Source: Podospora anserina
Taxonomy: Eukaryota
Direction: 5' to 3'
Length of the DNA stretch: 64,000 nucleotides
NCBI GenBank assembly: GCA_017654855.1
Contig: CM030333.1
Span: forward strand, 1,612,001 to 1,676,000
Part shown: positions 61,188 through 64,000 of the stretch, one piece after another
Position numbering within the stretch: position 1 is the first letter of the stretch
Layout: each line of letters begins with the position of its first letter
Notes under the pieces: generated by a model
What the model was told of the DNA's origin: nothing
What the model saw: the letters and a program-made list of their open reading frames with translations, nothing else
Database searches by the model: none
Made by a program: the position numbers and the translations under genes

Positions 61188-62650
61188 AATCTTTTGGTAA
61201 TATTTTTTTCTATCCCTAATTTTTTTCACCCTGATCTCCTCCACACAATCCGTCTCTCTCATTTCTGCTCATTTTTTAAGCATCACGAAATTGCAAAGGA
61301 ACTCATGTTTTGTCCAAAGTTTATTTCTTTATATTATTAATAATTAGAGATCCTCAGGCATCCGCCCCTTTCCGCTGTCAATGTCTACGCTATATCAACC
61401 ATGCTAGTCGTCATTCCGTGAAAGGGCAGAACAACAAAACATGATCAGCAACATGATAGCAGGGCAAGATGGCCTCTCTCCACACCCAAGCTAACTACAA
61501 CATTAATCAATACAGCTCATCGACCACACGCTATAATAGTGATCGCTGTACCCCACCCTTCCCAAGTCCACCACCCAATCCCTCAAGAGTATACGCCCGG
61601 TATTTTCCTTCCCTTTTGCTCCCCGCTGAAAAAGCCAAGCAGAGAAGCCAAATCAAAACAAAAAATCCAACAAGACGCCATTCCAATGCAGATCCTGAAC
61701 ACCGCAAAACCAAAAAGGCCGTGTACAGAAATGTTCCCTTATGGTTCCCTCCCAAAAGGAAATACAAGATTAATAGCCAGAGACCACACATACACACACA
61801 CAGAGAGAGAGATTAAAACCCTTCTTAAAACGATAAACAGAGTCCAAAAAAAAGCCAAAACAACAGATGCTATGCAGTTGGGTATCAGGATCCAAAACCA
61901 AAATGCCAAAAAAGGAGTGTGTGCCTATGCCGATTATATGCAGGGTTCGTAAAAGGAGTGTCTAAGTTGGGTATCAAATCCGTTCGATCCGGTAAAAGTA
62001 AAGGAATGTCTATAGTTCGATGTTGCTGGACCAGCCGGGACAAAGGAGCGTCGGTAAATATGTGTATCGTAAGGAGCGTCGTGCATGAAAAATGCAAGTA
62101 TTAGGTAAGTGTCGTTGCAGTCGTAAAGGAGCGTCGTGTGCATTGAGAAAAATGCCGTGGGATAAGCTGCGTTGTGAAGATCAAGGTTGTGATCGCCAAA
62201 CGAGTGTCGTGTACATTTGCGTCTGTGTTGAAGCGTGGAAAAACAAGCGAGAGTGCGCTCCGGAAAAAAGAAAACGAGAAACGGAAAAGCGAAAGTGGGG
62301 ATAAGGATGGGAGGTTGGGGGCAGATCATGGGCTACATCATCTTTCCCTTTCCCTTGATGTCATCCTGAGGAGCCGTGAGGGCGGGAATCACGGTGTTGT
62401 CGAGACTTGGAAACCTGGAATGTGCTGACATCACTGGCGTGGCAAGCAGCGGCGTGAGGGGTGATTCTGGAAGCGGAGGGTATTGAGCGGGTCCGGGACT
62501 CAGATAGGGCGAGTGAGCAAAAGACGAAGACGGAGCTGACATCCATGGCTGCTGGTCCTCCTGTGGCGTGTGGTCTAATGTTGTGCTCGAGTAGGAAGGC
62601 CTGGTCGTCATCTTGTCAATCACCTTTGACTTGTGGATTTCCAGAGGCTC

Positions 62651-64000
62651 CTAGGCCCACGTGGACTGGATTGGAGAAGAAACGAACCCGACACTGTAGC
62701 GGTGGCTGGCAGGACCCATGACGGGAGAGGCGGCTGAGTAGGGGACCGTCCAGTTTCCAGAATCTTCGAAGTCGCTGTGGCCGGCGTCGCCAAAGTCGCC
62801 ATAGACGCTCGAGACGGGACTGTAGGCGCCGTAGGGGCTAGGGATGTTAAGATACTGCTGGTTGCCAGAGTGAGGGAACGGGGATGACAGCTGCAGAGGG
62901 CTGACAGCGCTGTTGGGAACAGACAGGTCCTCGGTGCTGTAGCTGAATGACACGCTGTCTCCATAGAAGTACTCTGGAGAAGCAGCGGGAACCATGGCCG
63001 GTGAACCGTCGTTCATGTAGAAGGGCGGCGCCGTGTACTGATGGAATGCGGGCGTGTCAACAGGATGGGCCCAACCCATGCGGGAGCGGAACTCGTAGAC
63101 TGTGCCGAGGGGGTGATCCATGAAACTGAGAGAGGTCTGGCCCCTCTCCGAGCAGCTGAGACGTTGATGGATTTCCTCGATAGGCTTGACGGTAAGGCTT
63201 CCAAAGTAGGCTGCACCAATGTCGGGGAAAAGACGCTCCATCAGCAAAGCGGCCGTGTAGTAGTGAGCAATCACGACCAACGAGTTGGGGGAGCAACTGC
63301 TCTGCTGCAGCATATCGACAGGAAGCCAGAACAGCCAGGTGCGCAACGCCCTAAGGCGCTCAAACTGCTGGTGCAAAGGCTGGGTTAAGACGATCTTGCG
63401 AGAGCCCTTCATGAAGGCAATGAGCTGCGTGATGGGCTTGGGGCTCTCATGGCTCTGCTTCAGATGGTGCTCGAGCTTCTGCAGCTGCTTCAGAGTCCGC
63501 TGGTAACTGTCCATGTCGGCAGCGCATGGCTGGCTGGGCTGGTGGTCCGGGGTGGGCGACGGAGGGCCGGTAGGGAACGTGCTGCTCTCGGCGATGAAGT
63601 CGCCAAAAAGGGACTCGTGTTTCCAGGATTCCATGGCATCGATAATCTATTTCGTCCGAATTAGTCGGGCGGTCGCGGGGGCTTGGCACAACCTTTTTTA
63701 CTCACCGTTGAGGTTCCTTGCATGAGTTCGGTCCAGCTCTTCCTGTATCGAGGTCAGCCCTGGTCGGTTGTAGCCCGGATAGCTGCAGCATATTGCTTAC
63801 CAATCCGTAGCTTGCCACGACAGCACGAGCGAAGCCGCCAGGATGGCGTCGGAGTTCTCCCTCGAGAAGCAGCCGATGGCTTCCTGAAGGCGGTTCAGCG
63901 CAATGCCCCGGTGCTCGTAGGCCATGTTGCCCACCAATGGGCAGTCGGTCAGGTGCGCAAGGTGCGTGGCGGAAAACGCCAGCAGCGCATGCAAGACATA
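62651..64000 (-). CDS. Fungal-specific transcription factor (Zn2Cys6/Upc2-like, Fungal_trans_2-type middle domain), 5' part outside window
   Basis: HALLAFSATHLA..YEHRGIAL..LQEAI..FSRENSDAILAASLVLSWQ and LR.WLFWLP, Ser/Pro-rich C-terminus. Introns 63743-63800 and 63647-63705. The Zn cluster itself is not visible. Confidence 0.82.

Follow-up and report, generated by a model that had tools for sequence, protein, structure and literature searches.

Fungal adenosine-to-inosine (A-to-I) editing favors a U at position −1 and hairpin loops, and it edits canonical UAG stop codons in hundreds of genes, according to two reports (PMC11156358; PMC13123824). The second of these gives 403 stop-loss-edited genes for Fusarium graminearum. 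For DBF2 it describes a TAG that is kept in 94% of Sordariomycetes and an extension that is poorly conserved, and it names a hairpin-embedded TAG among the hallmarks. Most such editing has been argued to be nonadaptive, with a warning of misclassification when the sequence 3′ of the stop codon is conserved (PMC13684035). A second kind of editing corrects premature stop codons in “functional pseudogenes” such as PUK1, where the coding sequence 3′ of an in-frame UAG is conserved (PMC4817773; PMC11156358). A third system is intron retention, by which filamentous fungi obtain proteins with alternative C-termini. In this case a short GT..AG intron that has a branch-like motif can be spliced out or kept and, when kept, is translated up to a stop codon within the intron.

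Here we analyze a locus of Podospora anserina that shares features with all three. It lies at the edge of a window of 64,000 nucleotides (nt; assembly GCA_017654855.1, contig CM030333.1, positions 1,612,001 to 1,676,000; the window is the whole stretch that was analyzed, and all coordinates below count from its first letter) and holds the 3′ part of a minus-strand gene for a transcription regulator. Our results suggest that the last intron of this gene is alternatively spliced. If the intron is retained, its first codons would be translated and the protein would end in a short hydrophobic tail (GFVSSPIQSTWA) at a TAG. If it is removed, ...SVG would be joined to PSYSSTT..., and a conserved Ser/Pro-rich exon of 88 residues would replace the short tail, as in the long isoform that annotations of many Sordariomycetes contain. 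We consider it very probable that the conserved way to reach the long C-terminus is splicing, not editing or readthrough.

The gene attracted attention because of what follows its stop codon. An open reading frame (ORF) on the minus strand, 63646..62654, ends ...SVGFVSSPIQSTWA (also given as ...GFVSSPIQSTWA or ...HRYSVGFVSSPIQSTWA), followed by a TAG at 62653..62651. Past this TAG the same frame stays open for 105 codons (62650..62336, EPLEIHKSKVIDKMTTRPSYSS...KGKGKMM), up to a second TAG at 62335..62333. The original prediction was that the first TAG is lost through A-to-I editing or read through, which would yield a long isoform of the regulator. The coordinates of the extension are borne out by the sequence and by the reading of its ORFs. 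From base composition, the chance of 105 open codons is about 1–3%, and 490 of 20,000 shuffles of the stretch stayed open; hence, the earlier reader was right that the stretch is not random sequence. Open frames alone are nevertheless weak evidence at this locus: in three relatives (L022, L030, L033) the frame after the stop is open for 142–255 codons, yet the homologous exon lies in frame +2. Judging from these sequences, a GC-rich coding exon that is read off frame can look like a readthrough extension.

A search with the read-through translation as query returned 452 homologues at E ≤ 0.001. Among the 19 orthologues in our alignment A1, there are two kinds of C-terminus. Seven are short forms of 559–574 amino acids (aa) that end ...YGVG-FVxPxQxxW[ITA], and across orthologues the consensus of this tail is GFVxPIQTVW[ITA]. 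The other 12 are long forms, in which ...YGVG is directly joined to PSYLSTTPDYPPPED...PSPFLSPE...LPVPESP...KGKGK (P0006, P0009, P0017, P0019, P0020, P0021, P0025, P0037, P0044, P0076, P0081, P0090). Eleven of these are 625–646 aa long, and P0017 is a 420-aa model without the N-terminal part. From PSYSSTTLDHTPQED on, the extension in the window aligns with the C-terminus of the long forms. The exon matches a profile of long-form C-termini with an E-value of 3.4e-25, and it matches the last 76 residues of P0006 with 40% identity (E 3e-10) down to the last residue (KGKGKMM vs. KGKGKMI). A comparison of the extension alone with longer proteins had scored 0 of 124 candidates, a miss caused by the word index; the read-through query found 12 long forms covering the extension.

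The 29 window residues between the two conserved parts (FVSSPIQSTWA, the stop, and EPLEIHKSKVIDKMTTR) have no counterpart in any long form of A1 and therefore correspond to a GT..AG intron of 87 nt at 62687..62601. Removing this intron joins ...SVG to PSYSS in frame, and the junction aligns with those of the 12 long-form orthologues. The long-form gene models of Thermothelomyces thermophilus (P0020, MYCTH_2302011) and of Cladorrhinum sp. (P0006) thus represent the same gene, with the same splice junction (...VG|PS...) and a homologous last exon. Public annotations of the gene are inconsistent; some are long and others end at the stop codon within the intron (P0004, P0024, P0028, P0034). The protein model of the closest relative (P0002, 87% identity) is a short form. 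In none of the protein names listed by the homologue search are short and long forms marked as isoforms of each other. The original prediction was hence right that the extension is real coding sequence and belongs to a long C-terminal isoform; it is the proposed route, stop-loss editing or readthrough, that is not supported.

Assemblies of four sequencing runs show which form is transcribed. The introns 63647–63705 and 63743–63800 (CT..AC on the plus strand) are absent from contigs of X1, X2, and X6 and present in the DNA run X19. We therefore take X1, X2, and X6, which come from three studies, as RNA-derived, since their contigs lack exactly these two upstream introns; no run is recorded as RNA or as sexual tissue. 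Contigs of all three assemblies are unbroken from 63646 to 62000. They include 62601–62687, that is, the last intron is kept, and the TAG is therefore part of the mature mRNA in the dominant transcript. In these assemblies the main mRNA thus encodes the short form. The layout of the gene, from the window edge in the direction of transcription, is as follows.

63801..64000, minus strand: coding exon truncated at the window edge and belonging to the Fungal_trans_2 domain (YVLHALLAFSATHL...SWQATDW; PF11951); RNA-derived contigs join 63800/63801 to 63741/63742.
63743..63800, minus strand: constitutive intron of 58 nt, GTAAGC...CAG; spliced out in X1, X2, and X6 contigs and present in X19.
63706..63742, minus strand: short coding exon (KSWTELMQGTST), from contig pieces 63706–63741 in X2 and X6 and from the orthologue alignment.
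63647..63705, minus strand: constitutive intron of 59 nt, GTGAGT...TAG; spliced out in X1, X2, and X6 contigs and present in X19.
62688..63646, minus strand: large coding exon common to both isoforms, ending ...HRYSVG, from the ORF, the 452 homologues and alignments A1–A3; it comprises the last part of the helical domain as well as a disordered stretch rich in Ser and Pro.
62601..62687, minus strand: alternatively retained intron of 87 nt, with GTTCGT at the 5′ site, a branch-like TTGAC 15 nt upstream of the 3′ site, and CCAG|G at the 3′ site; its junction is that of the long-form orthologues, and if it is retained its first 11 codons give the conserved short-form tail FVSSPIQSTWA.
62651..62653, minus strand: TAG stop of the short, intron-retained isoform; its A, 62652, is the candidate editing site.
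62336..62600, minus strand: terminal coding exon of the long, spliced isoform (G|PSYSSTTLDHTPQED...LPESP...KGKGKMM), a split Gly codon and then 88 full codons.
62333..62335, minus strand: TAG stop of the long isoform, read in the sequence.
62000..62332, minus strand: 3′ untranslated region (UTR), reaching at least to 62000 and probably longer, from the unbroken RNA-derived contigs between 63646 and 62000.

The exon at the window edge (63797–64000) matches Fungal_trans_2 (PF11951) in Pfam with an E-value of 2.1e-06 and 27.3 bits, against a cut-off of 21. Full-length orthologues carry both PF00172 (Zn2Cys6), with a CxxC...C motif, and PF11951, which is precomputed there. The gene is therefore, by homology, a Zn2Cys6/Fungal_trans_2 transcription regulator whose 5′ part lies outside the window, and its Zn2Cys6 end is taken from the orthologues.

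Two details of the RNA-derived contigs concern the rest of the transcript. A minor X1 contig (record 5, 115 nt) leaves the intron 63743–63800 unspliced at a depth of 97, compared to about 1313 on the spliced path, so that low-level retention occurs at a constitutive intron too. At the other end, an X2 contig reaches 697 nt past 62000 (61300–62332 of the window, minus strand). Contigs that extend this far beyond both stops imply a 3′ UTR of about 1.0–1.3 kb or an overlapping neighboring transcript, and a contig spanning two genes would not prove a single transcript.

In relatives, both products can be found as transcripts. Eight loci look like cDNA in that the upstream introns are absent, and six of them keep the last intron (L006, L012, L013, L022, L026, L033). 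L028 is identical to L026 at 99.9% except that it lacks the predicted intron (L026 2239–2334, about 96–98 nt). Neither of the two has the upstream introns. Both are transcript-derived, and hence the retained and the spliced isoform both exist as transcripts in that relative. Two further sequences, L036 and the Logan-derived P0046, read as long forms that are full-length and spliced. Full-length short-form ORFs were found on 13 small jgi/lgn contigs, all of them rows of alignment A3 that end in the conserved tail; of these, the sequences of P0014 and P0015 were read. Retention looks like the more common state. In P. anserina itself, splicing of 62601–62687 would occur under some condition; we infer this from the conserved signals and the intact conserved exon, not from an observed junction.

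If the stop codon were the target of a conserved recoding mechanism, the frame behind it should matter, and relatives show whether it does. A scan of metagenome contigs yielded 80 loci, 35 of which carry the short tail followed by a stop; they form the comparison set for the counts of stops and frames. Many loci are near duplicates (28 exons reduce to 23 unique ones), so that the counts do not represent independent lineages. In 36 sequences (the 35 loci and the window) the stop is TGA in 11, TAA in 9, and TAG in 16. Past it, most loci meet another stop of the upstream frame within 2–36 codons. With the profile of long-form C-termini, a homologous last exon was detected behind the stop in 30 of the 35 loci. 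Its frame, counted from the stop, is 0 in 2 loci (L019 and L032), +1 in 8, and +2 in 19. In L019 the exon match is split over two frames, with a weaker second fragment (f2); no intron was picked there, and the locus is left out of the intron count. In L007 the exon runs off the contig, and the locus was used for intron length only.

The 29 homologous introns that we measured are between 78 and 143 nt long. Their length modulo 3 is 0 in 2, 1 in 8, and 2 in 19. The two that are divisible by three are those of the window (87 nt) and of L032 (78 nt), and L032 has a second in-frame stop eight codons after the first. Of the 28 fully tabulated introns, 27 begin with GTTCGT and 1 with GTTTGT, and all 28 have a YTRAC motif 7–26 nt upstream of a YCAG|G 3′ site. 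The combination of splice signals seen in the window recurs in 27 loci. Splice removal gives in-frame joining in every measured locus. Even allowing for near duplicates, each of the three frame classes and each of the three stop codons is represented. Since in most relatives the exon is out of the frame of the stop, editing or readthrough would not yield the conserved exon there, whereas splicing yields it in every one. Programmed frameshifting was also considered and dropped, as the GT..AG junction explains every frame. That the extension would be in frame with the stop across relatives, as the original prediction implies, was thus not observed (2 of 30 loci, and an intron divisible by three in 2 of 29). 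In the window, the stop and the extension fall in one frame by coincidence: the intron of this lineage happens to be 87 = 3 × 29 nt long and to contain no second in-frame stop.

Could the UAG still be edited to UGG in the intron-retaining mRNA during the sexual stage? Such editing would produce a third, lineage-specific isoform, perhaps alongside splicing, that consists of the short tail, a W, 17 intron-encoded residues, and the last exon. The edited or read-through peptide would contain ...STWAWEPLEIHK, while the spliced long isoform would carry the junction peptide ...HRYSVGPSYSSTTLDHTPQEDQQPW. Several observations agree with editing. The context of the UAG (gcc-uag-gag, 62653..62651), with U at −1, G at +1, and A at +3, is as first described, and a canonical UAG stop with U at −1 is what fungal stop-loss editing prefers locally. 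The intron-retaining mRNA is abundant and the frame through the intron is open. The preference for U at −1 and hairpin loops, and the hundreds of canonical UAG stops that are edited, are set out above with their sources.

The proposed hairpin is borne out in part. In the minimum-energy fold of a 42-nt piece (−9.5 kcal/mol) the UAG does sit in a 6-nt loop of a local hairpin, but in the minimum-energy fold of 81 nt its A is paired. The region folds no better than shuffled sequence (z = +1.07; 174 of 200 shuffles fold at least as well), and the probability that the A is unpaired is 0.59. No letter other than that of the window was found at 62652 in the contigs of the four runs, three of them RNA-derived and probably not from sexual tissue, and contigs drop rare variants. 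The contigs differ from the window only at 62111 and 62201. All four runs, including X19, have G instead of C at 62201, and X1 and X6 have T instead of G at 62111; both positions lie in the 3′ UTR and reflect strain differences or an error in the window, not changes of the A-to-I type.

Two comparative hallmarks of a conserved stop-loss site (PMC13123824), stop identity and frame, fail here: only 16 of the 36 sequences have TAG as the stop, a fitting frame is found in 2 of 29, and the only other measured intron divisible by three, that of L032, has its second stop eight codons on. The locus resembles DBF2 of F. graminearum in having a UAG with U at −1, a possible loop, and a disordered in-frame extension downstream. 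It differs from DBF2, as presented there, in having a stop of varying identity, a frame that is not conserved, and a conserved extension that relatives attach by splicing. The view that most stop-loss editing is nonadaptive noise (PMC13684035) also weighs against editing here. We consider editing of this UAG, as an extra specific to this lineage, unlikely.

Programmed translational readthrough of the UAG by near-cognate decoding would reach the same extension, and the frame after the UAG is indeed open in the window. The arguments from frame and stop identity apply to it as they do to editing. Moreover, neither a readthrough context nor a conserved downstream structure was found at the UAG, and no long-form orthologue has a counterpart of the 17 codons that the intron contributes after the stop. 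We consider readthrough highly improbable.

A different possibility is that the last exon is no longer used in this lineage, so that only the short product is made and the downstream open frame is a relic. The retained form alone is seen in contigs of three studies, and the model of the closest relative, P0002, is a short form as well. Against this, all 88 codons of the exon are preserved, its match to the long-form profile has the E-value given above, and its end shares the KGKGKM motif with P0006. The three splice signals agree with those of L026, a locus whose splicing is shown, and without selection an open frame of 105 codons has a chance of about 1–3%. A relic is, in our view, improbable.

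We regard alternative splicing of the last intron as the best explanation also because both ends of the protein are constrained. The position of the short-tail stop is identical in 44 of 44 aligned ORFs, and G316, F317, V318, and P321 are invariant in the short-tail alignment. The Gly codon at the 5′ splice site is GGG in 36 of 36 sequences, which fits its double role as the G|GT of the splice site. The tail codons after the Gly vary at synonymous third positions (ATT/ATC, ACT/ACC/ACA, GTA/GTG/GTC). In the last exon, the ratio of nonsynonymous to synonymous substitution rates (dN/dS) in the spliced frame is 0.09–0.45 in the closest pairs, and the median of all 47 pairs is 0.51; a dN/dS below one is what the original prediction had expected of its extension. 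Judged by these substitution patterns, the last exon is a disordered region under purifying selection and not an untranslated region. Many Sordariomycetes conserve both alternative ends as coding sequence, the one being a tail of about 10 residues within the intron and the other an exon of about 80–100 residues behind it.

The predicted structure of the region bears on how the two ends might act. In an AlphaFold2 model of the close full-length relative P0002 (34 aligned sequences) the mean predicted local distance difference test score (pLDDT) is 65, and residues 423–559, which include the short tail, fall below 35. The model of P0002 gives no sign of the short tail docking on the helical domain. 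Because the whole region is predicted to be disordered, the two C-termini probably act as short linear motifs, either for docking or under regulation by phosphorylation. The two C-termini would differ in function.

More distant relatives keep variants of the tail: GFVPQTVWI* in L053, GFVPQTLWI* in L054, GFVNPTTVW* in L061, GFVPQLVG... in L037, and GFVPPIPVGWM* in L027. Among L044–L080, mostly at 40–47% identity, the tail pattern matched only L053 and L054; L027, L037, and L061 carry variants of it. In L054, the frame continues to ...PPGKGKDRET behind a TAA stop. Going by these sequences, the arrangement of tail and exon may predate the sampled group.

A third splicing pattern occurs in P0110, P0120, and the Logan contig P0032. 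These sequences use another 5′ site just after ...GFVPPIQT and the same 3′ site, which leaves the last exon out of frame (e.g., GYVSEHHHGLPAPRGP...). They represent either a third, probably unproductive isoform or artefacts of gene models and assembly.

Some of our observations weigh against alternative splicing as the explanation. The spliced junction over 62601–62687 is absent from the contigs of this organism, which is not evidence of absence because contigs drop rare variants. The 5′ site GTTCGT is weaker than the other 5′ sites of the gene (GTAAGC and GTGAGT). Transcript-derived sequences of relatives mostly keep the intron (6 of 8 loci, and 13 short ORFs versus one clear long form, P0046), and the long form may be rare. 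The sequences that splice after ...IQT (gene models and one Logan contig) put the last exon out of frame, and the near duplication among the loci (28 exons, 23 unique) means that our counts do not come from independent lineages.

The weak 5′ site itself could be part of the biology. Locked in place by the Gly-Phe-Val codons, it might cause inefficient and possibly regulated splicing. One could speculate that this dual-coding intron serves, across Sordariomycetes, as a switch between two mutually exclusive, selected C-termini: a hydrophobic ...GFVPPIQTVWI-COOH and an S-P-rich ...PSPFLSPE...LPxPESP...KGKGK. The weak GG|GTTCGT would keep splicing inefficient and open to regulation, for example by development, and sexual-stage editing could add a third route to the long tail in those few lineages, this one among them, whose intron is divisible by three and whose stop is UAG. 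We put this forward as a tentative possibility only.

How does the locus compare to the other two systems? With premature-stop correction as described for PUK1 (PMC4817773; PMC11156358) it shares conserved coding sequence 3′ of an in-frame UAG. At our locus, however, an intron explains the conserved 3′ sequence, and the stop itself is the conserved end of a conserved short product. The resemblance to intron retention in filamentous fungi is closer: a short GT..AG intron with a branch-like motif is removed or kept, the kept intron is translated up to a stop within it, and both transcripts exist in a relative. What sets the gene apart from that class is that both outcomes are conserved as coding in many Sordariomycetes and that the retained form is apparently the main mRNA. 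A literature search by MYCTH_2302011 and by Zn2Cys6 intron-retention isoforms found no paper on this gene. One Zn2Cys6 paper, PMC3577648, was set aside as unrelated; its Zn2Cys6 passages concern EBR1.

The mechanism, intron retention versus splicing, is ordinary, and for relatives the long model has already been annotated publicly. Of mild note are how deeply both ends are conserved and how inconsistent the annotations are. The analysis removes a tempting false positive: in-frame conserved coding sequence behind a UAG mimics stop-loss editing or the correction of a premature stop, and here it is due to an unrecognized retained intron. Surveys of fungal stop-codon editing and the debate on whether editing is adaptive depend on not misclassifying such cases (PMC13123824; PMC13684035). 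Purifying selection acts on both alternative ends throughout a fungal class, which makes the gene a clean and testable example of a fungal transcription factor whose alternative splicing is functional.

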